DNA of 64,000 nt from the sequence record NC_005066.1, one strand, 5' to 3'. Source of the stretch: Escherichia phage RB49. Of the stretch, positions 33,435 through 60,133 are shown piece after piece; the first letter of the stretch is position 1; each line of letters starts with the position of its first letter. The notes beneath the pieces are model-generated. The model was not told the DNA's origin. It saw nothing but the letters and a program-made list of their open reading frames with translations, and searched no databases. Both the position numbers and the translations under genes were made by a program.

Positions 33435-33586
33435 AATATTTCCTCCATAGAAAGCAATATCATACTACAAGTTAATAACAAATACAAGTATCCGCGTAGC
33501 GGAAGCGAGCACAGCGAGCAATAAAACACTTCTAGTAATTGATTAATAAATGTTCGAAACAAATTTTTATTATTCTATAAGATAAG

Positions 33587-33612
33587 TCTTCGTTTTGATC
33601 ATAATTTAATCA
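33587..33612. repeat. 26 bp direct repeat, copy 1 (TCTTCGTTTTGATCATAATTTAATCA)
   Basis: identical to copy at 33736-33761. Confidence 0.8.
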
Positions 33613-33735
33613 TACATGTAAAAACTACACAAAAGGATATCGCTTCGCGAACTCCTACGGAGTATAACATTTGTGTTACAATATGTAGTGATTAATAATT
33701 AACCAAAGATACATTTTCTATGTTCTAAAGATCTT

Positions 33736-33761
33736 TCTTCGTTTTGATCATAATTTAATCA
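33736..33761. repeat. 26 bp direct repeat, copy 2
   Basis: identical to copy at 33587-33612; flanking ACATGTAAA also shared. Confidence 0.8.
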
Positions 33762-33814
33762 AACAGTATTAATATTGTGCACATGTAAACTAAAATTATG
33801 TTAATAACAGATAC

Positions 33815-50972: not shown

Positions 50973-51004
50973 GTTTGATTCTCCTTTCGTTTCGGTATGG
51001 GTGC

Positions 51005-51033
51005 ATTATAGGGGATCGGTGACCCCCTGTCAA
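51005..51033 (-). promoter_or_regulatory. early promoter cassette B (TTGACA-17-TATAAT)
   Basis: consensus hexamers; spacer is GC-rich near-palindrome. Confidence 0.7.
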
Positions 51034-51040
51034 CAACTTT

Positions 51041-51559
51041 TTAGTTATTTTTTAATTGTTCATCTTGCAATAATGCAATCACATGCTGGCGATGTTCTTC
51101 CGATTGAGACACACCGAAAAAGTTTGTTTTGTAGAAATACTCTAATCGGTCTTCTCGTGTGCTCTCTTCCATCATGATCGCGGGTAGTCCGAGATTTCGG
51201 AAACGTCGCTTTTCTGCTGGCGTAAAATCACTGTAATACAACATAGAATCATCATTACAAGCAATGCTAAACTCATCCTTCATAAAGGAGAATATTGCGT
51301 TTAAACGCTGTTTACCGTCCACGATTTCGATCTCATAGCGAGAGCCATCATCAATCTTAGCCATTGCGATAGCACCAACCGGAAAATCATTAATCAGGTT
51401 TTCGATAAACATACGTTTGTTTTCGGTGTCCCATACTAAAGGACGCTGATAATCTGGGTTCATGTTGATATAGCCATCTTCTAACCATGCTTCATAAACA
51501 GAGATAACAAAGTTTTTAGTATTGGTATAGTAACGGCGTTTAGGCGTTAAACGGTTCAT
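51041..51559 (-). CDS. DUF262-like (ParB/GmrSD N-terminal domain-like) protein
   Basis: motifs NPDYQRPLVW and IVDGKQRL; start placed at Met 51559 with AGGAGA RBS (ORF track extends to 51595). Confidence 0.6.
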   Translation of the reverse strand: MNRLTPKRRYYTNTKNFVISVYEAWLEDGYINMNPDYQRPLVWDTENKRMFIENLINDFPVGAIAMAKIDDGSRYEIEIVDGKQRLNAIFSFMKDEFSIACNDDSMLYYSDFTPAEKRRFRNLGLPAIMMEESTREDRLEYFYKTNFFGVSQSEEHRQHVIALLQDEQLKNN

Positions 51560-51560
51560 G

Positions 51561-51890
51561 TTATAGTCTCCTGAATGGATCATCACGTAAATCAATATCT
51601 TTTAAGAACTCATCCCATGAATGGCGGATATTGTTCTTAATTCTCCAGATAAGAGCAGGGATTGAACGCTCTCCCATCTGGAAGTATGGATCATATGATC
51701 CGTATGCCCAATATGCTACTACAATTCCACAATCAGCGCAATAGTATTCTATTTCACTTGCTGGCGACCAAAGTCCATCAATATGATCGGTGATCTTGCT
51801 TTCGATGTTATGGCTATGACAATCAGGGCAACGGATGCAATGACCTTGTTTATCGTAATTTGACGTTAGCGAATACTTAAACAATCTCAT
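51561..51890 (-). CDS. zinc-ribbon protein
   Basis: CIRCPDCHSH ... YYCADCG cysteine pairs; 109 aa. Confidence 0.55.
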   Translation of the reverse strand: MRLFKYSLTSNYDKQGHCIRCPDCHSHNIESKITDHIDGLWSPASEIEYYCADCGIVVAYWAYGSYDPYFQMGERSIPALIWRIKNNIRHSWDEFLKDIDLRDDPFRRL

Positions 51891-52606
51891 TATAGATCCT
51901 TATTTGCTTCAAATACTGCCTTTGCGAATCCTCGCGGGGTAAGTGACCTGATAGTCTTTGTTTTCGTTCCTTTCCCGCCTAGCTTAGAATGCTGTTTACT
52001 GTACCCTTTATTAATCTGCAAAGGTTTCTTTTCTGGCATTATAAAGCCTTGTCCGGTCCATAAGCAAGTCTTTTTCGGGTACATATCACGGGCGGCAATA
52101 TACTCAGGAAAAGTAGGATGTTTATCATCTTCCGGCAAATAACCGCCATATTCCCACGGATGGAACATATAATCAGGCTTACGCCACATGCTAGAGATAA
52201 CGCTTACAGGATTCTCTATCATGTAGGGAACTCCTATCCATTCACCCAAATAAGCGGTTATTTTAGCTGCCCTTACATCATGAACTTGAATCAATGGTCC
52301 TTGTTCTAGTTTCTTTCGTTCAAAGTGCGCAGCGCCACTAACAGCTAAATTGGTGCACGGTGGGAATGCAAAGATAATATCCGGTTTCCCCCATTCAAGG
52401 TCCATTGCTCTTTCCAGCCAGTTCAAATCAATCCAGGTGTTTACATAGGTAATGTTTGGATGTTCAAATCTGGTATTATATTTTTTGTATGTACCGTGGT
52501 CGCCATCGTCAGCATTAAAGCAGATCACCTTATGACCCGCTTTAGCCCATTCTAACCCCATTATCCCCGACCCGTCAAAGTTGCAGAATATTAATTTTTG
52601 TTTCAT
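51890..52606 (-). CDS. C5-pyrimidine methyltransferase-like protein lacking a target-recognition domain
   Basis: motif I-like FDGSGIMGLEWAKAG, PC motif FAFPPCTNLAVSG, ENV-like YMIENPVSV; only 238 aa. Confidence 0.45.
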   Translation of the reverse strand: MKQKLIFCNFDGSGIMGLEWAKAGHKVICFNADDGDHGTYKKYNTRFEHPNITYVNTWIDLNWLERAMDLEWGKPDIIFAFPPCTNLAVSGAAHFERKKLEQGPLIQVHDVRAAKITAYLGEWIGVPYMIENPVSVISSMWRKPDYMFHPWEYGGYLPEDDKHPTFPEYIAARDMYPKKTCLWTGQGFIMPEKKPLQINKGYSKQHSKLGGKGTKTKTIRSLTPRGFAKAVFEANKDL

Positions 52607-52848
52607 ATACGCCCCTTTAATCCAACACAGATTTTAGAAGGTTCTTTGCCGTGCCACATTAAGTAAAGTCCGTTAATGCGGCCTTGTTTTGTATATGATT
52701 CTTTTCTGATCTTCTTATAGTGTCGTGTTTCCTCTACCGATTGTTTAGAATACCAATCATAAAGGAAGAGGAACAAAGGCCAACCATTAGCAACCTTAAT
52801 GCAGTTATTCAAAAATTCCTTATTTCGTTTAATTAATTTTCTTTTCAC
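52603..52848 (-). CDS. hypothetical protein (81 aa)
   Basis: start overlaps upstream stop; operonic. Confidence 0.5.
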   Translation of the reverse strand: MKRKLIKRNKEFLNNCIKVANGWPLFLFLYDWYSKQSVEETRHYKKIRKESYTKQGRINGLYLMWHGKEPSKICVGLKGRI

Positions 52849-53096
52849 GCTGCCCCCATTGGTTTGATAGTAACAGAATCTAAAAGACCTTTGTTAGCCA
52901 GTTCGCGGCAAGTTTTCAGATCCGCAACTTCCCAGCCAGCCGCAATCAGGTTATCAATGAGGCTGTTAGCAACTTCTTCGCTCATGAAAGAGCACTGTTT
53001 GCCGATGGTGTAGCGTACACGCTGTAATTTCAGTTTACGGAAGCCTTTAACGTTCAGGTCTTTAGCGATTTTCTTTGCGGTTTCGATGTTAGCCAT
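52845..53096 (-). CDS. hypothetical early protein (83 aa), first gene of five-gene operon
   Basis: ATG GCT AAC ATC start directly after cassette C. Confidence 0.55.
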   Translation of the reverse strand: MANIETAKKIAKDLNVKGFRKLKLQRVRYTIGKQCSFMSEEVANSLIDNLIAAGWEVADLKTCRELANKGLLDSVTIKPMGAA

Positions 53097-53136
53097 TGTT
53101 TGATTCTCCTAAGTGGTATCTCGTCTTGATGGTTGT

Positions 53137-53165
53137 ATTGTAGGGGAGTTATCCTCCCCTGTCAA
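53137..53165 (-). promoter_or_regulatory. early promoter cassette C (TTGACA-17-TACAAT)
   Basis: spacer is hairpin GGGGAG-loop-CTCCCC. Confidence 0.6.
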
Positions 53166-53179
53166 CACTTTTTATAAAA

Positions 53180-53347
53180 TTATTTGTTAATTTCTGGTGC
53201 GTTGCTAGGATAGTAACCTTCTTTAACTCCGAGGTATTTCGCAACCATCCCTACAATCTTCTGTGCTACTACAATGTCAAATTTCAGATAATCTTCGCCG
53301 TGGGTTTCAACGATATATGCTTCACATGCTGCTTTAGTCTCGAACAT
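53180..53347 (-). CDS. small hypothetical protein (55 aa), duplicate copy 1
   Basis: about 85 percent nt identity to 57506-57673; ORF track entry 53284-53490 reads on through the promoter. Confidence 0.5.
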   Translation of the reverse strand: MFETKAACEAYIVETHGEDYLKFDIVVAQKIVGMVAKYLGVKEGYYPSNAPEINK

Positions 53348-53380
53348 TTTGATTCTCCTATTTCGTTTCGGTATGTGTGT

Positions 53381-53409
53381 ATTATAGGGGATCTCCCGAT
53401 CCCCGTCAA
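53381..53409 (-). promoter_or_regulatory. early promoter cassette D (TTGACG-17-TATAAT)
   Basis: spacer hairpin GGGGATC-loop-GATCCCC. Confidence 0.6.
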
Positions 53410-53422
53410 CAACTTTTTTAGA

Positions 53423-53899
53423 TTATTTGCACCACACTGTAATTTTCTTATCATGTTGGTAGTGAATCCATCGAATATCATCTTTATCAATCATGACAGT
53501 AACATACCCATTTACTAGTGATTTGTCAAAACGGTTATGTAACAGTGCAATATATTGAAAGAATGGTTCTTTTGTATTTGAATATATTCCCTTACCATCA
53601 AACGTCATGACATTTTTGTGAACTTTAAATTCATTACGAAGAACAGCCGTCATTGTCCCGTCTTCATTAGTTTTGAGTTTTAATTCGGATTCTTTGTAAA
53701 AATATGCGTCACGGGCTTTACTTTCTTCCCCGTCTTGTACTCTTACTTCACTAGCATAATCACACTGATAGGTCTTATCTACATTTTCGATCTTTTCTTG
53801 TGTCATATCAAAAAGCGGTGCGACCTTTTTCTTGGCCGCGTGTGCTACGTTGGTCATGGACAGTGCTGCAACAACCGCAATAGCAATAATCTTCTTCAT
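53423..53899 (-). CDS. secreted/periplasmic protein with N-terminal signal peptide
   Basis: MKKIIAIAVVAALSMTNVAHA signal peptide; 158 aa. Confidence 0.6.
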   Translation of the reverse strand: MKKIIAIAVVAALSMTNVAHAAKKKVAPLFDMTQEKIENVDKTYQCDYASEVRVQDGEESKARDAYFYKESELKLKTNEDGTMTAVLRNEFKVHKNVMTFDGKGIYSNTKEPFFQYIALLHNRFDKSLVNGYVTVMIDKDDIRWIHYQHDKKITVWCK

Positions 53900-53929
53900 A
53901 GTATTCTCCTTTTGTTTTGTGTTGGGAGT

Positions 53930-53958
53930 ATCTTAGCGACACTCCCGTTATTTTTCAA
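53930..53958 (-). promoter_or_regulatory. early promoter cassette E (TTGAAA-17-TAAGAT)
   Basis: weaker hexamers; hairpin GGGAGT/ACTCCC overlaps -10. Confidence 0.45.
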
Positions 53959-53964
53959 ATCTTT

Positions 53965-54246
53965 TTATTCGTGATTAGTTTCGATGTTGTGCATTTTGCA
54001 CCAGTTCAACCAATCGCCCAGATCTTGATAGTTGATGCTTTTATCTGCTGCCATCGTTTTTGTCTTGATACCCATATGTGCGTTATGAGTAAGCATTTTT
54101 ACAGTGAACTCAATTTTATCACCTTTAGCTTTAACATCAACCAGTTTGGTCCACTGGCTACCAGCGCCGCGAATGTTCATACCAACGATGTTTCCGATGT
54201 ATGCTTCTTTGTTTTTCAGGATTTCGGTTGCTTTGATGAATTTCAT
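53965..54246 (-). CDS. hypothetical early protein (93 aa)
   Basis: ATG after cassette F. Confidence 0.55.
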   Translation of the reverse strand: MKFIKATEILKNKEAYIGNIVGMNIRGAGSQWTKLVDVKAKGDKIEFTVKMLTHNAHMGIKTKTMAADKSINYQDLGDWLNWCKMHNIETNHE

Positions 54247-54279
54247 TTTTGATTCTCCAGTTCGTTTCGGTATGGGTGT

Positions 54280-54308
54280 ATTATGCTATGTTCTTACTTT
54301 GGTGTCAA
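54280..54308 (-). promoter_or_regulatory. early promoter cassette F (TTGACA-17-CATAAT)
   Basis: consensus -35, conserved leader ACACCCATACCGAAACGA. Confidence 0.65.
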
Positions 54309-54315
54309 CAACTTT

Positions 54316-54585
54316 TTAGATATTTTCAGAAATAAATTTTAAAACTTGACGTAAATGTTTCTCATCTTTGATAGTCGCCGGAAGTTCTTCTTTTACTTCC
54401 TGTGCAAGATAGATATTTCCGTTCCAAGTGAAAGATCCGTCTTCGTTTACGCGATAGCTGAACATCCACTCGCAATCATTTTCGATTTCATATACACACA
54501 GAAGGGTGTAATCGTTAAAGCTAGTGATTTCAAGGTCGAAGCCGTGACGTTTTGCAAAGTTGGTAGTGGTTTTAGTCAGTGCCAT
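54316..54585 (-). CDS. hypothetical early protein (89 aa)
   Basis: ATG after cassette G. Confidence 0.55.
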   Translation of the reverse strand: MALTKTTTNFAKRHGFDLEITSFNDYTLLCVYEIENDCEWMFSYRVNEDGSFTWNGNIYLAQEVKEELPATIKDEKHLRQVLKFISENI

Positions 54586-54625
54586 TGTTTGATTCTCCTA
54601 AGTGGTATCTCGTCTTGATGGGTGT

Positions 54626-54654
54626 ATTATGCTATAGTCGTGATCTGGTGTCAA
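54626..54654 (-). promoter_or_regulatory. early promoter cassette G (TTGACA-17-CATAAT)
   Basis: consensus -35; follows terminator hairpin. Confidence 0.65.
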
Positions 54655-54684
54655 CAACTTTTTTAAATTTTTGGAAATAAAAAA

Positions 54685-54702
54685 GCCGACACTAAGGTCG
54701 GC
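54685..54702 (-). terminator. intrinsic terminator (minus strand)
   Basis: GCCGAC-loop-GTCGGC then T-run on minus strand. Confidence 0.6.
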
Positions 54703-54707
54703 ACATT

Positions 54708-55019
54708 TTAAAAATTCTTGCTATATATGCAAGCCTCATAATCTAGAGGATGACCGCCAATCCTACCAGGCTTAATATTCCAACCGCATCGATATTTTCT
54801 GACCATGCTAACCGTTTCGGTTCTTAGAGCATTTCTTTGCAAATCATACCCCCTAAATTCTTGTCTATAAGGACAGTCCGCTTTGCAAGTTGGCGGTTCT
54901 ACGTCATTTAGCGGGTCGGAAGCAGTTGGCTTTATTATCAATTCTTTGTTTGCAATAATCATAAGCACATCCCATTGAAGACAATTTAACATCTTCGCAA
55001 TAAGTGTTGAATCCGTCAA
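54708..55019 (-). CDS. Cys-rich hypothetical protein (overlaps next ORF; possible frameshifted gene)
   Basis: 103 aa ORF overlapping 54904-55095 in another frame. Confidence 0.35.
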   Translation of the reverse strand: MTDSTLIAKMLNCLQWDVLMIIANKELIIKPTASDPLNDVEPPTCKADCPYRQEFRGYDLQRNALRTETVSMVRKYRCGWNIKPGRIGGHPLDYEACIYSKNF

Positions 55020-55095
55020 ATACGATCACTTCGTATTTGACTCCATCAGCGATAGCTTTTACTTTATACCATCCATGCTTGTATAAAATCTTCAT
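54904..55095 (-). CDS. Cys-rich hypothetical protein (63 aa)
   Basis: ATG after cassette H with GAGGA RBS. Confidence 0.45.
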   Translation of the reverse strand: MKILYKHGWYKVKAIADGVKYEVIVFDGFNTYCEDVKLSSMGCAYDYCKQRIDNKANCFRPAK

Positions 55096-55127
55096 CTTTA
55101 TTTCCTCAATCTCGTTTCGATGGGTGT

Positions 55128-55157
55128 ATTATGCTATAGGCTAGACCAGGTTGTCAA
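55128..55157 (-). promoter_or_regulatory. early promoter cassette H (TTGACA-18-CATAAT)
   Basis: consensus -35. Confidence 0.6.
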
Positions 55158-55188
55158 CAACTTTTTTAATTTTTTGGGAAATAAAAAA

Positions 55189-55206
55189 GCCGACGCTAAG
55201 GTCGGC
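55189..55206 (-). terminator. intrinsic terminator (minus strand)
   Basis: GCCGAC-loop-GTCGGC then T-run; near-identical to hairpin at 54685. Confidence 0.6.
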
Positions 55207-55214
55207 TAATAAAA

Positions 55215-55523
55215 TCATTTGGACAAATAATCATTCTGTGCAATCCGGTCGGCGTATGCTGGTGTTATGTCAATCGCCAGCACTTTAACGCGTGCTTTCT
55301 TGCGACCTGGGTTTTCTCGTAACCAGTGCTCATGACCGTGAACATTTTTATACTTTGATGCTTCTTCAAATGTACGGATCGGACCTGGGTAATCAGCGTA
55401 AAGGATCTCTAGGTCTTCGGTGATGTAAAAATATACATCGTAATTACTGTTCTCTAGTTTAAGCAGAGAGTTGCGAAATTGTGGTAAATTCTCGCGGGTA
55501 AATTCAACTACAAGATTTTTCAT
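55215..55523 (-). CDS. hypothetical protein, HxHW...VLAVDV-motif family, paralog 1
   Basis: VYFYITEDL ... HGHEHWLREN ... VLAIDI. Confidence 0.6.
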   Translation of the reverse strand: MKNLVVEFTRENLPQFRNSLLKLENSNYDVYFYITEDLEILYADYPGPIRTFEEASKYKNVHGHEHWLRENPGRKKARVKVLAIDITPAYADRIAQNDYLSK

Positions 55524-55552
55524 AGTGATATCCTCATTCAGATAGATTAAAA

Positions 55553-55567
55553 GGGGCTTAACGCCCC
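55553..55567 (-). terminator. hairpin terminator (minus strand)
   Basis: GGGGC-loop-GCCCC then U-rich on minus strand. Confidence 0.45.
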
Positions 55568-55574
55568 CCGTATA

Positions 55575-55862
55575 TTAAAACAGTCCTTCCTGTACACCGT
55601 AGTAGAGTTCGTCACTGATAATTTCATTAATGCGACGGTGTGCATATTCCTGATTTGCGAAGTTATCAGCAAGTTCTACTTTAGTTTCGCCGTCATGAGT
55701 CCATTTAGTGATAACTTTACCATCTGCAAATTTGAAGTTGAACTCTTTAGCTACTGCATCGCGTACCAGACGTGCGAACTTGTTGTTACGGATGGCATTA
55801 TCGGTTTCGTGTGCAGCGTGAGCGAATTTGTTAACTTTCAGAGTGATAGTAATGTATGCCAT
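55575..55862 (-). CDS. hypothetical early protein (95 aa), AKEFN family copy 1
   Basis: RLVRDAVAKEFNFK parallels REVRKALAKEFNTK of 58891-59220. Confidence 0.55.
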   Translation of the reverse strand: MAYITITLKVNKFAHAAHETDNAIRNNKFARLVRDAVAKEFNFKFADGKVITKWTHDGETKVELADNFANQEYAHRRINEIISDELYYGVQEGLF

Positions 55863-55908
55863 AATTTGATTCTCCTAGTTAGAAAGTGTATCTCGTTTCG
55901 ATGGGGAT

Positions 55909-55937
55909 ATTATGCTATATCCCCGATCCGGTGTCAA
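55909..55937 (-). promoter_or_regulatory. early promoter cassette J (TTGACA-17-CATAAT)
   Basis: -10 in loop of GGGGATAT/ATATCCCC hairpin. Confidence 0.65.
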
Positions 55938-55943
55938 CACTTT

Positions 55944-56237
55944 TTATAAAATAATTTTTTGATATTTTTCTATGATGTTTGTGTAGGTCACGTCAACCGC
56001 TAGCACCGTTGCTTCGAATCCACCGTTTAGCCAATGGCTATGATCATGATCGTGAAAGAAACCTAGACCAGTACGAAGACCTTCTTTATATTCTGCGCGT
56101 ACATTCAGTTTGTCGTCGATAAACAGATAAAACCATGAATTTTTACTAGGATTGATGATACAACCTTTCAGATTAGGAAGAATATCACGACTAAGAATAA
56201 ACTTATCACCTACTTTGAACATAATATTAGTCCTCAC
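55944..56237 (-). CDS. hypothetical protein, HxHW family, paralog 2 (probable true start at internal ATG near 56222)
   Basis: WFYLFIDDKL ... HDHDHSHWLNG ... VLAVDV. Confidence 0.55.
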   Translation of the reverse strand: MRTNIMFKVGDKFILSRDILPNLKGCIINPSKNSWFYLFIDDKLNVRAEYKEGLRTGLGFFHDHDHSHWLNGGFEATVLAVDVTYTNIIEKYQKIIL

Positions 56238-56547
56238 TTATAAGGTCAAACCAATTGTTTTTCGCATAATGCTTAATGCGTGCTTGATCTGCTTCCGCTG
56301 GTGATAGATTCCATGCAACCACTACAACTTCTGACGCATCGTCATCCGTTTCTGATACCCAATGATTGTGATTCATACAGTTATTTGCTATCGAGTGAGC
56401 AAATGATTTCATCACTGGAGACGTATAATCATAGTAACGGATTTTCAGATTTTCATCAACGTACAAGTAGATCGTATACGGCTTATATTCAGTAACCAGT
56501 AACAGACAGTTACGCAATTCTGGGAAAATCTTTTTAGTTAATTTCAT
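56227..56547 (-). CDS. hypothetical protein, HxHW family, paralog 3
   Basis: start placed at MKLTKK with GAGGA RBS; TIYLYVDENL ... NHNHWVSE ... VVVVAW; ORF track extends to 56628. Confidence 0.5.
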   Translation of the reverse strand: MKLTKKIFPELRNCLLLVTEYKPYTIYLYVDENLKIRYYDYTSPVMKSFAHSIANNCMNHNHWVSETDDDASEVVVVAWNLSPAEADQARIKHYAKNNWFDLISED

Positions 56548-56548
56548 T

Positions 56549-56767
56549 TTATAATCCTCGGTCTCGGCTATAGTACACGGTACGCCATACAATTTCATGT
56601 TTCGTGTCGCTCCAGCACACGATCTCATTTACTCTTAAATCTTTGTTATCAACAAAAGATGAACATTGTGACGCTTCTTTCATCATTTTATCTGCTGTTT
56701 TCTCATCAAATACAGCACAGATTTCTTTATACACTCGATAATCTTTGAATTGACTCTGAATACCCAT
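56549..56767 (-). CDS. hypothetical protein, KMMxxASxC family copy 1
   Basis: start placed at MGIQSQFKDY; paralog of 56727-56990. Confidence 0.45.
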   Translation of the reverse strand: MGIQSQFKDYRVYKEICAVFDEKTADKMMKEASQCSSFVDNKDLRVNEIVCWSDTKHEIVWRTVYYSRDRGL

Positions 56768-56990
56768 AATTAACACCATTCCAACCAATTGTTTTTGAGA
56801 AAACGTTTATCCACTGTTGAGTGTAGCATGTTTCTTTCCATGATACAATACGAGTGGAATAATGGTTTTTGTTTCCAGAAAAGGACGGGCATTTTGATGC
56901 ATCTTCCATCATCTTTTCGGCGAACTCTGGTGCGTATACTCGCAGGATCTGTTGATATGCTTTGTATTCTTTAAATTTGCTCATAATCAT
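56727..56990 (-). CDS. hypothetical protein, KMMxxASxC family copy 2
   Basis: MSKFKEYKAY...AEKMMEDASKCPSF; 3' end overlaps next gene by about 40 nt. Confidence 0.5.
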   Translation of the reverse strand: MIMSKFKEYKAYQQILRVYAPEFAEKMMEDASKCPSFSGNKNHYSTRIVSWKETCYTQQWINVFSKTIGWNGVNYGYSESIQRLSSV

Positions 56991-57249
56991 TCACTACCTT
57001 ATCAGCTTCTTTTGTTGTTTTTACATCAACTGCGATAACTCGTAAAGGTTCGTCATGGTTCCACCAGTGGTCATGAATATCAGCTTGTGATTTATCACCA
57101 AAGGAATCACGAATATCATTTTTACATTTATAGCTAATGTGACCTTCATAGTCAACATAAAGGTAATTATCGAAAATCGGCGTTTTTAAGATCATACCGA
57201 AAAATCTTTCTTTGTGTGTCTTATCCAGCGTTGCAGTAATTCGCATCAT
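56971..57249 (-). CDS. hypothetical protein, HxHW family, paralog 4
   Basis: NYLYVDYEGH ... HDHWWNHDE ... VIAVDV. Confidence 0.55.
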   Translation of the reverse strand: MMRITATLDKTHKERFFGMILKTPIFDNYLYVDYEGHISYKCKNDIRDSFGDKSQADIHDHWWNHDEPLRVIAVDVKTTKEADKVVNDYEQI

Positions 57250-57261
57250 AATATATTCCTC

Positions 57262-57441
57262 TTAGAAAGGGATGGTCATTTCTTGAGCTTGTACATTCTC
57301 GTTAGGATTAAACTTCATCCAGCCGATATTGTCTACCAGCATATGCACATTTTTATCATATCCTACGTGAGTAGTCAACACTAAATGTGCTTTACCTTCA
57401 ATGATGAGTTCCATGTACTTCTGAACTTCGATAGCTTTCAT
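57262..57441 (-). CDS. hypothetical early protein (59 aa)
   Basis: ATG after cassette K; below ORF-track cutoff. Confidence 0.45.
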   Translation of the reverse strand: MKAIEVQKYMELIIEGKAHLVLTTHVGYDKNVHMLVDNIGWMKFNPNENVQAQEMTIPF

Positions 57442-57473
57442 TTTGATTCTCCGTTTGTTGTCTTGATGGGAGT

Positions 57474-57502
57474 ATCTTACTACTCCATTTAATCATTGTC
57501 AA
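57474..57502 (-). promoter_or_regulatory. early promoter cassette K (TTGACA-17-TAAGAT)
   Basis: consensus -35; hairpin GGAGTA/TACTCC overlaps -10. Confidence 0.5.
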
Positions 57503-57505
57503 CTA

Positions 57506-57673
57506 TTATTTGTTAATTTCTGGTGCGTTGCTCGGATAGTAACCTTCTTTAACACCTAGATATTTTGCAACCATTCCGGTGATCTTCTGTGCTACTACGA
57601 TATCGAATTTCAGGTAGTCTTCACCGTGGTTTGCTACAATGTATGCTTCGCATTCTGCTTTAGTCTGGAACAT
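57506..57673 (-). CDS. small hypothetical protein (55 aa), duplicate copy 2
   Basis: near-identical to 53180-53347 protein; ORF track entry extends through promoter. Confidence 0.5.
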   Translation of the reverse strand: MFQTKAECEAYIVANHGEDYLKFDIVVAQKITGMVAKYLGVKEGYYPSNAPEINK

Positions 57674-57707
57674 TTTTGATTCTCCTATATCTCGTTGGTA
57701 TGTGTGC

Positions 57708-57736
57708 ATTATAGGGGATCACCGATCCCCTGTCAA
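57708..57736 (-). promoter_or_regulatory. early promoter cassette L (TTGACA-17-TATAAT)
   Basis: spacer is perfect hairpin GGGGATC-GGT-GATCCCC. Confidence 0.7.
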
Positions 57737-57741
57737 CAACT

Positions 57742-58035
57742 TTATAATGCTTTATATGCGTATTTCATAAATTTGTCTGCCACTTCATTGGCATGTTCAG
57801 ATTCTACGCCTGATTCGAGAACAATAGCTAGGTCGGTTTCGTCATTCCCGCCGTACCAATGATTTGATGTTCGATTTTTTTCAATTGGAAATTGGTCACT
57901 TTTATCTGTGCGACAAAATACATCTAAATGCTCGTCGATGTAAAAGATCCAATCTTCATAAAGAATAACGGTATTAGCAAGATTTTTATTGCCTTCAACG
58001 AAAGGTTCCGCGACAAATAGCTTAGTTTGTTCCAT
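57742..58035 (-). CDS. hypothetical protein, HxHW family, paralog 5
   Basis: start placed at MEQTKLF with GAGGA RBS; WIFYIDEHL ... SNHWYGGNDE; ORF track extends to 58092. Confidence 0.5.
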   Translation of the reverse strand: MEQTKLFVAEPFVEGNKNLANTVILYEDWIFYIDEHLDVFCRTDKSDQFPIEKNRTSNHWYGGNDETDLAIVLESGVESEHANEVADKFMKYAYKAL

Positions 58036-58051
58036 AGTAATTTCCTCAAAA

Positions 58052-58300: not shown

Positions 58301-58621
58301 TCACACAAAATGGCGTGTCAATGCTTCTTTTGCGGTTCCGCTAAGACTTTCAATCTCGCCTGGCATAACATCAACCGCCAGAACTTCTACAACATCCTCG
58401 GACCCTAACCAGTGAGTATGGCCTTTGTAGAACTTGATAACCAGACCACCTTCCTCGTCCCATTTAACGCTATCGCTAGCCCACCACACATCACCGTCGA
58501 TAAAGTTGATGTAAAGCACACTACGCCACATTGAATTAATTACTTTCAATACTGCGCCTTTCATCTCTTCCACGGTATGGTCTTCCATTTTGAAGACCTC
58601 ACCTACCTGAACTTTTGCCAT
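58301..58621 (-). CDS. hypothetical protein, HxHW family, paralog 6
   Basis: VLYINFIDGD ... KGHTHWLGSED ... VLAVDV. Confidence 0.6.
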   Translation of the reverse strand: MAKVQVGEVFKMEDHTVEEMKGAVLKVINSMWRSVLYINFIDGDVWWASDSVKWDEEGGLVIKFYKGHTHWLGSEDVVEVLAVDVMPGEIESLSGTAKEALTRHFV

Positions 58622-58818: not shown

Positions 58819-58852
58819 AATTGATTCTCCTAGTTCGTTTCGGTATGTGTGT

Positions 58853-58881
58853 AGTATAGGGGATCGGTGATCCCCTGTCAA
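58853..58881 (-). promoter_or_regulatory. early promoter cassette M (TTGACA-17-TATACT)
   Basis: spacer hairpin GGGGATC-ACC-GATCCCC. Confidence 0.6.
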
Positions 58882-58890
58882 CAACTTTTT

Positions 58891-59220
58891 TTAAAGTTTT
58901 TCCATGATAACGGTCATAATTACATCTTCTGCGCGAGCTGTCAGATTATCAGCGTCAGCATGTGGGCGGTTGGTTGTTACAGAGATAACACCGTTGCGCA
59001 CTGGTTTGATATTGATATCAAGATGATCCGCGAAACGTTCGTGATCCGCGAAACGTTCGCCAGTTACAGAATGAATTTTGGTGTTAAATTCTTTTGCCAG
59101 TGCCTTGCGAACTTCACGAATCAGGATAGCGTTTTTCAGTTGGTTCTCCGCGCTCATGGTCTTCTGGGTGTTCATGGTTCCGTCGAAGTCAATCATTGGC
59201 AGCGTTACGATGTATTTCAT
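58891..59220 (-). CDS. hypothetical early protein (109 aa), AKEFN family copy 2, with internal ERFADH tandem duplication
   Basis: paralog of 55575-55862; contains 18 bp tandem repeat. Confidence 0.55.
   Translation of the reverse strand: MKYIVTLPMIDFDGTMNTQKTMSAENQLKNAILIREVRKALAKEFNTKIHSVTGERFADHERFADHLDINIKPVRNGVISVTTNRPHADADNLTARAEDVIMTVIMEKL
59025..59060. repeat. 2 x 18 bp tandem direct repeat (GATCCGCGAAACGTTCGT / ...GC)
   Basis: 17 of 18 identical; in-frame within CDS 58891-59220. Confidence 0.75.
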
Positions 59221-59659: not shown

Positions 59660-60133
59660 TTACTCCTTATTTTCTCGCTCGTACTTTTCGAAATAAAATT
59701 CTACTGGCTGGTCATGAATTGACAGCAAGCCAAAGCGTTTAGCCGCTCGCAATCCCATATTGCGCTGAATGTACTTCTGGAAGTTCTCGCGTATACACTT
59801 ACGCCAGTATTCTAAGCCCATACAGCTTTTATAAAGATTGCATTGCACACACGCCGGATTCATGTTATCAAGTATATCATGTTCCGGTTTATGCATTCCT
59901 ACAACCTTATACTTCCACGATCCATCATCATTACGGGCAATTCGTCCATTTTCATCATAGACTACCTTTGAGCGTCGCAATACTGGTTTGATGTGGTCTG
60001 CGTGCCAGCGATCCCCTAGTTCCTCGCCACAATAGGCACAACGTCCACCATATTTCATTTTCAGGATCTGGCGTTGCTCTTTCTTTGACAATTTTTTAGG
60101 TTTAGGGGCTTTCGCCCCTTCATTATCACACAT
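59660..60133 (-). CDS. HNH endonuclease
   Basis: CAYCG ... HADHIKP ... N ... CVQCN HNH motif; start overlaps ligase stop. Confidence 0.7.
   Translation of the reverse strand: MCDNEGAKAPKPKKLSKKEQRQILKMKYGGRCAYCGEELGDRWHADHIKPVLRRSKVVYDENGRIARNDDGSWKYKVVGMHKPEHDILDNMNPACVQCNLYKSCMGLEYWRKCIRENFQKYIQRNMGLRAAKRFGLLSIHDQPVEFYFEKYERENKE

Follow-up and report, generated by a model that had tools for sequence, protein, structure and literature searches.

A pair of 55-residue genes in the hyperplastic region

The window, a 64,000-nucleotide stretch of Escherichia phage RB49 (NC_005066.1), derives from a Krischvirus, an RB49/phi1-like T4-type coliphage, and contains the hyperplastic region, rich in PeSLs, that separates alt from the DNA ligase gene. 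Two early ORFan genes of 55 codons are found at this site, both on the minus strand and each preceded by an AGGAG Shine-Dalgarno motif. Copy A (53180..53347) is the ortholog of phi1/RB49 ORF191 by position and sequence, while copy B (57506..57673) corresponds to ORF205. A 67-aa ORF was also listed for copy B, but its start (57709) falls within the -10 box of the copy B promoter and is not genuine. The interval between the copies (53423..57505, minus strand) encodes about 13 small ORFan genes, several of which have a PeSL in their upstream region. An HNH endonuclease gene, named from its relatives, occupies 59660-60133, 2 kb away.

A preliminary description of this DNA had reported two nearly identical 55-aa genes, about 85 percent identical and 4.3 kb apart, and this holds: in an ungapped alignment the copies share 144 of 168 nucleotides (85.7%, against a floor of about 80 percent proposed there for a duplicated pair) and 50 of 55 amino acids (91%), with a spacing of 4326 bp. 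The 22 codon differences comprise 17 synonymous changes and five replacements. When the window is compared with itself by BLAST, the pair forms the best off-diagonal match (53179-53416 versus 57505-57743; 240 columns, 85.8%, E 2e-72) and is the sole coding match identified among 26; nearly all others are 39-118 nt long and lie within 50.7-59.3 kb. No third copy was found in the window by tblastn.

Annotations in over 50 genomes call both genes hypothetical proteins, and both products match phrog_8009, a tiny, phage-only family without an assigned function, over residues 1-55 of 55 (E 4.9e-38 for copy A and 1.2e-38 for copy B). Neither matched a family in Pfam or NCBIfam. AlphaFold2 gave a confident prediction in one of five models (mean pLDDT 85), for which Foldseek returned nothing at E < 1 in the PDB, and in BFVD no match beyond an ortholog of the query itself and an uncharacterized protein of phage Henu8. 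A word-indexed search yielded six clusters of homologs and an exhaustive profile search five representatives, one of which is a spurious repeat match to a 1625-aa protein and another (P0009) an apparent chimera. Four loci with homologs were identified in IMG/VR and none in bacterial genomes sampled at one per species.

In protein databases of 5.8 and 1.8 billion entries, the closest match of each copy is the other. Members of the family are also encoded by unrelated siphoviruses, whose homologs lie equally far from both copies (48-53 differences in 150 nt), and by an element on Logan contig L012 that has housekeeping-type genes on its flanks. The L012 homolog is 83% identical to A at the amino acid level (38 nt differences) and 78% identical to B (42). 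An ORF194 homolog adjoins it there.

PeSL cassettes flanking each copy

Both ORF191 and ORF205 are single-gene modules with a PeSL (promoter-early stem-loop) on either side. These intergenic units of about 65-85 nt consist of an AT-rich tract (the AAAAAGTTG tract upstream of the promoters), a sigma-70 early promoter, a G/C stem-loop, a leader, and a Shine-Dalgarno sequence. Copy A is driven by PeSL 192/191 (53348..53422, minus strand), which contains the AT-rich tract, the leader, and AGGAG; its promoter is TTGACG-17-TATAAT (53409..53381, 11/12; -35 at 53409-53404, -10 at 53386-53381), and the stem-loop GGGGATC-GGGA-GATCCCC (53404-53387) appears in both the MFE and centroid folds. Copy B is driven by PeSL 206/205 (57674..57741, minus strand), which aligns with phi1 PeSL206/205 and contains TTGACA-17-TATAAT (57736..57708, 12/12) and the stem GGGGATC-GGT-GATCCCC (z -2.3). 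In both, a G/C stem of 7-8 bp is located between the promoter hexamers.

Directly downstream of copy A, PeSL 191/190 (53097..53179, minus strand) drives an ORF190 homolog (52845-53096) from TTGACA-17-TACAAT (53165..53137, 11/12), with the stem GGGGAGG/CTCCCC and an MFE of -20.5 kcal/mol (z -3.7). The weaker PeSL 205/204 (57442..57505, minus strand), directly downstream of copy B, drives an ORF204 homolog (57262-57441) from TTGACA-17-TAAGAT (57502..57474, 10/12), and its hairpin GGAGTA/TACTCC overlaps the -10. All four flanking promoters lie on the minus strand with 17-nt spacers and match 10 to 12 of the 12 sigma-70 hexamer positions. The MFE fold of every unit includes a hairpin of 6-8 bp, three between -35 and -10 and one over the -10, and z-scores for the whole 64-83-nt stretches range from -1.5 to -3.7. 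Upstream regions were read for 26 genes, and approximately 11 of them, at 50.7-59.3 kb, carry such a unit, which spans the gap between an ORFan's stop codon and the Shine-Dalgarno or ATG of the following one and is clustered in the hyperplastic region.

The placement of each copy directly behind a promoter cassette, as originally noted, is therefore correct, and the cassettes, near-consensus sigma-70 promoters with a G/C stem-loop, are the PeSLs published for RB49 and phi1 (Arbiol et al. 2010, PMC2839356; Comeau et al. 2014, PMC4122927). They share with these the genus, the hyperplastic region, the genes ORF191 and ORF205, and the intergenic anatomy (AT tract, near-consensus TTGACA-17-TATAAT, G-run/C-run hairpin, Shine-Dalgarno). 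A lacZ fusion to PeSL206/205 produced about 13,000 Miller units in one wild-type clone, and the PeSL211/210 stem-loop terminated transcription about as well as rrnB T1 (PMC2839356). Based on this anatomy and these assays, both genes would be transcribed by host RNA polymerase right after infection from strong promoters of their own, each yielding what is predicted to be a small soluble early protein.

The repeat extends from the stop codon of each gene through the -35/UP region of its PeSL (53179..53416 for A; 57505..57743 for B, both on the minus strand), and similarity ends 2-3 nt past the stop codon and, on the other side, in the AT-rich tract 5' of the -35. The homology peculiar to the pair spans only ATG to stop. 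The upstream cassettes are about 87% alike, but the copy A PeSL is closer to a PeSL at 58821-58891 (90-96%) than to that of copy B. Because this likeness is not specific to the pair, it is no proof that gene and cassette traveled together, and we set co-duplication of the cassette aside as evidence, since the resemblance is no greater than between unrelated PeSLs. A larger segmental duplication was likewise rejected, since the genes adjoining A are not paralogous to those adjoining B. In phage JSE, the gene upstream of copy A is unrelated to ORF206.

Age, selection, and ongoing recombination

Fifty of the 57 Krischvirus records encode both genes and no record encodes a third; among the single-copy genomes, five contain only copy B. 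Orthologs of copy A are 95.8-99.4% identical at the nucleotide level across 52 records. The A and B sequences form two clean clades, with at most 10 nt differences within the B clade and 15-26 nt separating it from the A clade. Four replacements are fixed between the clades (A7E, E14A, T15N, and V32T), and three of these map to the predicted first helix (residues 5-16) or right next to it. One record labeled 'Krischvirus RB49' (OZ035808) lacks ORF192 and so could not serve to reproduce the ORF192 layout published for RB49. The near genus-wide occurrence of two copies speaks against a recent duplication.

Synonymous divergence points the same way. Between A and B, pS is 0.53 (bootstrap 0.34-0.74), dS approximately 0.93, dN 0.047, and dN/dS 0.05, although dS is based on about 34 synonymous sites, so that its confidence interval is wide owing to the short gene, and conversion makes divergence uneven along the gene. 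The pS value exceeds the ortholog level, which is 0.09-0.18 across the genus. Strong purifying selection maintains both copies almost throughout the sequenced members of the genus, and a by-eye count of fixed versus polymorphic replacement and silent differences from the variable-site table, in which counts are small, gave no sign of positive selection.

These values leave hardly any room for a recent duplication within the history of this phage, with the differences reflecting rapid drift or relaxed selection. An identity of 85.7% is high in absolute terms, and in some genomes the two copies match completely or almost completely over their last 68 nt (0-1 differing sites in MIZ6 and OZ035808, compared to 5-6 in the window, phi1, and JSE). 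However, these matching 3' ends are lineage-specific conversion tracts, not an ancestral state; 17 codons differ only synonymously, A and B orthologs are each about 96-99% identical over 50 genomes of worldwide isolation, and a dN/dS of 0.05 excludes relaxed selection. The ortholog distribution and dS refute the recent reading, and the duplication is real but ancient, probably older than the diversification of the Krischviruses known today.

Both genes remain subject to homologous recombination, whether between PeSLs or between one copy and the other. In Brandy, ORF193 is joined to ORF190 through one chimeric PeSL, with copy A removed exactly, and the annotation map of JK32 has the same gene order. 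Cognac and FL04 have lost the interval together with copy B: in Cognac, a B-type PeSL and leader precede an A-type coding sequence (crossover between the Shine-Dalgarno and codon 3), whereas in FL04 the crossover of an otherwise Cognac-type deletion lies at the -35/stem. At the nucleotide level, chimeric PeSLs were read at the Brandy 193/190, Cognac, and FL04 junctions and also upstream of copy A in JSE. The pair behaves as a 4.3-kb direct repeat that has brought about loss of its interval twice in natural isolates. The A-type bases at nt 51-75 of Brandy copy B, like the 3' ends in MIZ6 and OZ035808, show that the copies exchange conversion tracts in some lineages.

The crossover zones are those of the sequenced laboratory mini-circles (-10 to ATG, or Shine-Dalgarno to -10), one of which, from RB49, contains ORF191-194 (Arbiol 2010, PMC2839356). 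PeSL recombination, to which the literature attributes the gain and loss of genes at this very locus (PMC2839356), is apparently general homologous recombination over about 70 nt. Integron gene cassettes are similar in outline, being single promoter-adjacent ORF modules that move as small circles in and out at a repeated intergenic element. However, no integrase, attC, or attI was seen here, and a PeSL module either carries its own promoter along or acquires one; PeSL modules are not members of the integron family.

Origin of the second copy

We consider it probable that ORF191 and ORF205 are old, PeSL-bounded paralogs maintained by purifying selection and that the second copy arose by recombination between PeSLs, well before the known Krischviruses radiated. 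An excised mini-circle carrying the ORF could have reinserted at another PeSL, or an unequal crossover could have produced a tandem pair that incoming cassettes subsequently separated; a third possible origin is the uptake of a diverged allele. Among relatives, neither a tandem pair nor a copy at a third PeSL was found, and the original junction signature has been erased because PeSLs are homogenized among themselves. The earlier term "cassette-mediated" has indirect support: pair-specific homology is limited to an ORF with PeSLs on both sides, PeSL crossovers affect both copies in relatives, and conversion tracts connect the copies in some lineages.

In the case of an acquired allele, A and B would be xenologs that diverged in separate phage lineages before one was inserted, still through PeSLs by mini-circle or co-infection recombination, at a second PeSL of the other's carrier. 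The A-B pS is three to six times as large as the deepest divergence seen among orthologs within the genus, and other genes of the region show equally deep allele divergence between isolates (58% identity between the slot-192 proteins of the window and MIZ6; 71% for ORF206 between FL04 and the window), indicating that diverged donor pools exist. The L012 homolog, on a contig not T4-like in appearance, is nearer A than B, and the five B-only genomes also fit such an origin. Against it, no lineage sequenced outside Krischvirus has a single A-like or B-like copy in a distinct genomic background, database searches place A and B closest to one another, the single-copy genomes resemble derived deletions with PeSL junctions, and B-only Brandy has an A-type tract. 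We therefore regard xenology as possible but rather unlikely.

The earlier suggestion of transposition, in the transposon sense, is not supported: neither terminal inverted repeats nor target duplications nor a recombinase gene turned up at the locus. More broadly, we consider it very improbable that a conventional mobile element (an IS, a transposon, an integron cassette, or one associated with a homing endonuclease) carried the gene, with PeSLs incidental. The nearby HNH endonuclease gene and the spread of the family to unrelated siphoviruses and the L012 element could be cited in its favor, but homology stops at the stop codon and within the PeSL, and the junctions read in relatives fall in PeSLs. 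Flank alignments revealed neither inverted terminal repeats nor target-site duplications around either copy, and among the small ORFs at 51-60 kb, some of them profile-scanned, no integrase or transposase was called.

The preferred reading, old paralogs spread by PeSL recombination, has a partial parallel in alt, alt.-1, alt.-2, and RB49ORF183c (Nolan 2006, PMC1524935), likewise small, non-essential early genes retained as diverged paralogs in plastic regions of T4-type genomes. Those duplications are adjacent and involve conserved genes, whereas ORF191 and ORF205 are dispersed over 4.3 kb, each with its own promoter cassette. The PeSL papers (PMC2839356, PMC4122927) describe insertion, deletion, and replacement, but the words 'paralog' and gene 'duplication' are absent from their text; we found no mention of ORF191/ORF205 paralogy in the literature, where 'ORF191c' denotes a gene of phage RB43 rather than RB49.

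The pair is real, ordinary, and essentially already known: ancient and nearly genus-wide, the duplication is an ordinary case of a known shuffling mechanism. As a long shot, the paralogs and PeSLs may serve as recombination handles by which the 4.3-kb, 13-gene block (ORF192-205) excises as a circle and moves between co-infecting phages, with the two proteins diverging functionally in parallel; in that case each might, for instance, bind a different variant of one host target. On this reading, the neighboring ORF194 and 55-aa homologs of L012 would hint at a functional partnership.

This locus already serves as the textbook case of modular shuffling through PeSLs, and our results chiefly confirm it. 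What they add is that ORF191 and ORF205 are paralogs, that PeSL crossovers in dozens of natural isolates occur at several distinct points of the cassette in agreement with laboratory mini-circle junctions, that dispersed paralogs render the accessory genes between them deletable, and that gene conversion operates between the copies. With both copies retained under purifying selection and behind strong early promoters, this 55-aa ORFan is a reasonable candidate for functional study, possibly in host takeover or anti-defence.

A pair of 55-residue genes among early-promoter cassettes

The window carries two near-identical 55-codon ORFs on the minus strand, copy A at 53180-53347 and copy B at 57506-57673, which are spaced 4326 bp apart. 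Aligned without gaps, they agree at 144 of 168 nucleotides (85.7%) and at 50 of 55 residues; 22 codons differ, 17 synonymously and five by replacement (E3Q, A7E, E14A, T15N, V32T). Nucleotide identity is above about 80%, and the preliminary description, which put the identity at about 85% and the spacing at 4.3 kb, was accurate on both points. Self-BLAST of the window yields 26 off-diagonal matches, the strongest of which (53179-53416 versus 57505-57743; 240 columns, 85.8%, E 2e-72) is the A/B pair, the only match recognised as coding; of the remainder, a single one falls outside 50.7-59.3 kb. No third copy of the gene was found in the window by tblastn. The similarity of A and B is not due to chance. 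A mechanical ORF call extends copy B to 67 aa, from an ATG within the -10 box (TATAATG; window 57674-57709), but the true start is 57673, an ATG preceded by AGGAG; database entries P0005 and P0006 have N-terminal extensions resembling this miscall.

The region is 92-97% identical to Krischvirus genomes (RB49/phi1/JSE-like T4-type coliphages), and in the phi1 annotation copies A and B are ORF191 and ORF205, lying in a block of small ORFans bounded by alt and gene 30 (DNA ligase). When the 85 nt 5' of each of 26 minus-strand genes at 51-60 kb were read, one common intergenic unit was found upstream of approximately 11, in the order AAAAAGTTG, TTGAC(A/G), a G-run/C-run hairpin, TA(T/C)(A/C)(A/C)T, a conserved leader, (T)AGGAGAATCAAA, and ATG. 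A consensus scan for TTGACA-17-TATAAT returned eleven sites with at least 11 of 12 matches, every one on the minus strand. Such promoter/hairpin units flank both copies on both sides. Each copy is directly preceded by one, as had been proposed, with 11/12 consensus matches for A (53409..53381, minus) and 12/12 for B (57736..57708, minus). A further minus-strand unit lies downstream of A (53165..53137; 11/12), and a weaker one, whose hairpin overlaps the -10, downstream of B (57502..57474, minus; 10/12). The hairpin is present in the minimum-energy fold of all four flanking units.

These cassettes are the promoter-early stem-loops (PeSLs, named by their flanking ORFs) already described in PMC2839356 and PMC4122927, which number about 50 per RB49 or phi1 genome, mostly in hyperplastic regions (Arbiol et al. 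2010, PMC2839356; Comeau et al. 2014, PMC4122927). The cassette preceding copy B is the counterpart of PeSL206/205, a clone of which gave ~13,000 Miller units of promoter activity; terminator activity is also on record for a PeSL stem-loop (PMC2839356). Neighbouring PeSLs recombine to form small circles (PMC2839356, PMC4122927), and one sequenced RB49 circle, band H, comprises ORF191-194, thus including copy A, its crossover falling in the -10 to ATG stretch of PeSLs 190/191 and 194/195. Neither PMC2839356 nor PMC4122927 mentions the ORF191/ORF205 paralogy, or any gene duplication, and the paralogy is likewise unmentioned in the comparison of five genomes where RB49 was originally described.

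Age, distribution and homologs of the pair

The duplication had been called recent, a claim contradicted by both its synonymous-site divergence and its copy number in relatives. For the window pair, the Nei-Gojobori method gives a pS of 0.53 (codon bootstrap 0.34-0.74), with dS 0.93, dN 0.047, and dN/dS 0.05, against an ortholog pS of 0.09-0.18 for the same genes across isolates. Among the 57 Krischvirus records with the gene in the phage collection, the gene is present in exactly two copies in 50 and in three copies in none; only an A-type copy is present in two (Cognac, FL04), and only a B-type copy in five (Brandy, JK32, UPWr_E1, MIZ4, MIZ5). Fifteen copies, extracted from the window plus nine relatives (10 genomes in all), sort into two clades, A and B, with at most seven nucleotide differences within the A clade, at most 10 within the B clade, and 15-26 between them. 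Because pS is well above that of orthologs and the two clades occur genus-wide, the duplication is older than the radiation of all sequenced Krischvirus members. Since that event, strong purifying selection has acted on both copies.

The 55-aa protein falls in phrog_8009 (unknown function) and has no match among Pfam and NCBIfam families. AlphaFold2 produced a single confident model out of five (mean pLDDT 85), which folds as a small alpha/beta unit (H5-16, H18-22, E28-31, H34-39, E44-47); no similar fold was found in the PDB, and in BFVD the matches are limited to the ortholog from GEC-3S and an uncharacterised protein of Henu8. T4-type early ORFans typically act on host functions. The gene has strong early promoters and good Shine-Dalgarno sequences, is under purifying selection, and sits among these ORFans, from which we infer, as a working view, a small soluble early protein.

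Beyond Krischvirus, the phage collection contains homologs only in siphoviruses of enteric bacteria, where the proteins are ~70-74% identical (Swiduovirus swi2, Skatevirus SeSz-2, and their relatives). Just a handful of further clusters came from two very large protein collections, and a collection of one genome per bacterial species has none. Over 150 nt, the siphovirus genes lie equally far from A and from B (48-53 differences), and the two copies are the nearest relatives of one another, a pattern that fits duplication within the Krischvirus lineage. Possibly, one copy is instead a diverged allele acquired from an unsampled relative. Duplication within the lineage could have proceeded by reinsertion of a mini-circle or, alternatively, by unequal crossover followed by insertion of a cassette between the copies; no genome contains an intermediate.

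A 54-aa homolog, sharing 83% identity with A and 78% with B, occurs on Logan contig SRR5584643_240 (L012), which also carries a small-terminase gene; adjoining the homolog are PHP-domain and 2-hydroxyacid-dehydrogenase genes, which we take to be ycdX- and ghrA-like. Overlapping the start of the homolog is an ORF194 homolog (L012:5484-5926; 41% identity, E 5e-25; phrog_6147), and ORF194 of the window itself is found two modules upstream of copy A. This adjacency suggests an ORF194/ORF191 gene pair conserved in an unrelated mobile element, offers ORF194 as a lead for a possible functional partner of the 55-aa gene, and is weak evidence that copy A occupies the older position.

Other genes and repeats of the region

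At least five proteins of ~92-106 aa, 27-34% mutually identical (E 2e-14 to 4e-4), are scattered through the hyperplastic region (55215-55523, 55944-56222, 56227-56547, 56971-57249, and 58301-58621, all minus) and have a common C-terminal motif, H.HW ... V(L/I)A(V/I)D. The ORF at 57742-58050, ORF206, which neighbours copy B on its upstream side, is probably a further, distant member. The duplications in this family are much older than that of the 55-aa pair. Another local duplication is represented by tandem, slightly overlapping ORFs of ~71-83 aa at 56549-56764 and 56727-56978 (minus; 38% identical, E 4e-14).

The slot just upstream of A (53423-53899, minus), which corresponds to ORFan192 in the paper on PeSLs, differs in content among isolates. 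Its product in the window is a 158-aa protein with a signal-peptide-like N-terminal segment and no PHROG match, and the MIZ6 version is only 58% identical; JSE encodes an unrelated basic protein of 103 aa with a hydrophobic N-terminal segment, and the slot is empty in phi1 and OZ035808. The only domain-annotated genes in this ORFan stretch are the homologs of ORF187 (51041-51559, minus; DUF262-domain protein in relative W115) and ORF189 (51890-52606, minus; 238 aa; DNA methyltransferase in relatives).

A 98-nt direct repeat (54607-54702 and 55109-55206; 88.8% identical) lies in intergenic sequence flanking the 54708-55095 ORFs. It includes an intrinsic-terminator-like hairpin (AGCCGACC..GTCGGCT, then a T-run) and resembles a PeSL-type module, but with a classical terminator. 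The only self-BLAST match outside the 50.7-59.3 kb PeSL region is a 77-78-nt direct repeat at 33540-33616 and 33689-33765 (78%, ~150 nt apart).

Recombination between cassettes and between copies

Homology specific to the A/B pair extends from approximately the Shine-Dalgarno/ATG to 2-3 nt past the stop codon. The PeSLs upstream of A and B are 87% alike, a likeness that is not specific to the pair, as copy A's PeSL matches those at 58821-58891 (90-96%) and 50974-51050 (85-91%). PeSLs evolve in concert, so the original duplication junctions have been erased. There is no paralogy between the neighbours of A and those of B; with homology limited to the ORF, the copied unit was thus a single ORF with a PeSL at either end, as the mini-circle model predicts.

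Relatives provide direct evidence of PeSL x PeSL recombination acting on both copies. In Brandy and JK32, ORF190 directly follows ORF193 and copy A alone is removed; read at the nucleotide level, the Brandy junction is a single chimeric PeSL, with copy A missing exactly, whose 5' part (hairpin, -10, ACACACAT) is of the type upstream of A and whose 3' part (CAAGACGAGATAC..TTAGGAGAATCAAACA) is of the type downstream. In Cognac, which lacks ORF192 through ORF205 (the interval and copy B), the ORF206 tail and a B-type PeSL/leader lead into an A-type coding sequence and downstream flank, with the crossover between the Shine-Dalgarno and codon 3. FL04 has the same deletion in a phi1-like allele background, with the crossover at the -35/hairpin boundary; this deletion arose independently of that in Cognac, making two separate losses of the interval. 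The JSE PeSL upstream of copy A combines a B-type hairpin with an A-type leader, beside a different inserted gene, the PeSL191/190 hairpin is swapped in MIZ6, and MIZ4 lacks a larger block, ORF186-191. The cassette-mediated mechanism suggested in the preliminary description was broadly right, and its timing wrong.

Sequence has also been exchanged between the copies. Brandy copy B has A-type bases at all six diagnostic sites from nt 51 to 75, and OZ035808 copy B has an A-type base at nt 7. Within the final 68 nt, A and B of the same genome differ at no site in MIZ6 and one in OZ035808, versus 5-6 in the window, phi1, and JSE. These A-type stretches and matching 3' ends are conversion tracts, which make A/B divergence uneven along the gene (pS 0.61 in codons 1-35, 0.40 in codons 36-55).

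The A/B duplication is real, and belongs to a known kind of event, at a locus from which that kind was originally reported. The additions are small, namely the ORF191/ORF205 paralogy, natural PeSL junctions, two interval losses, and conversion tracts exchanged by the copies; the natural junctions fall at several crossover points and bear out the mini-circle data from the laboratory.
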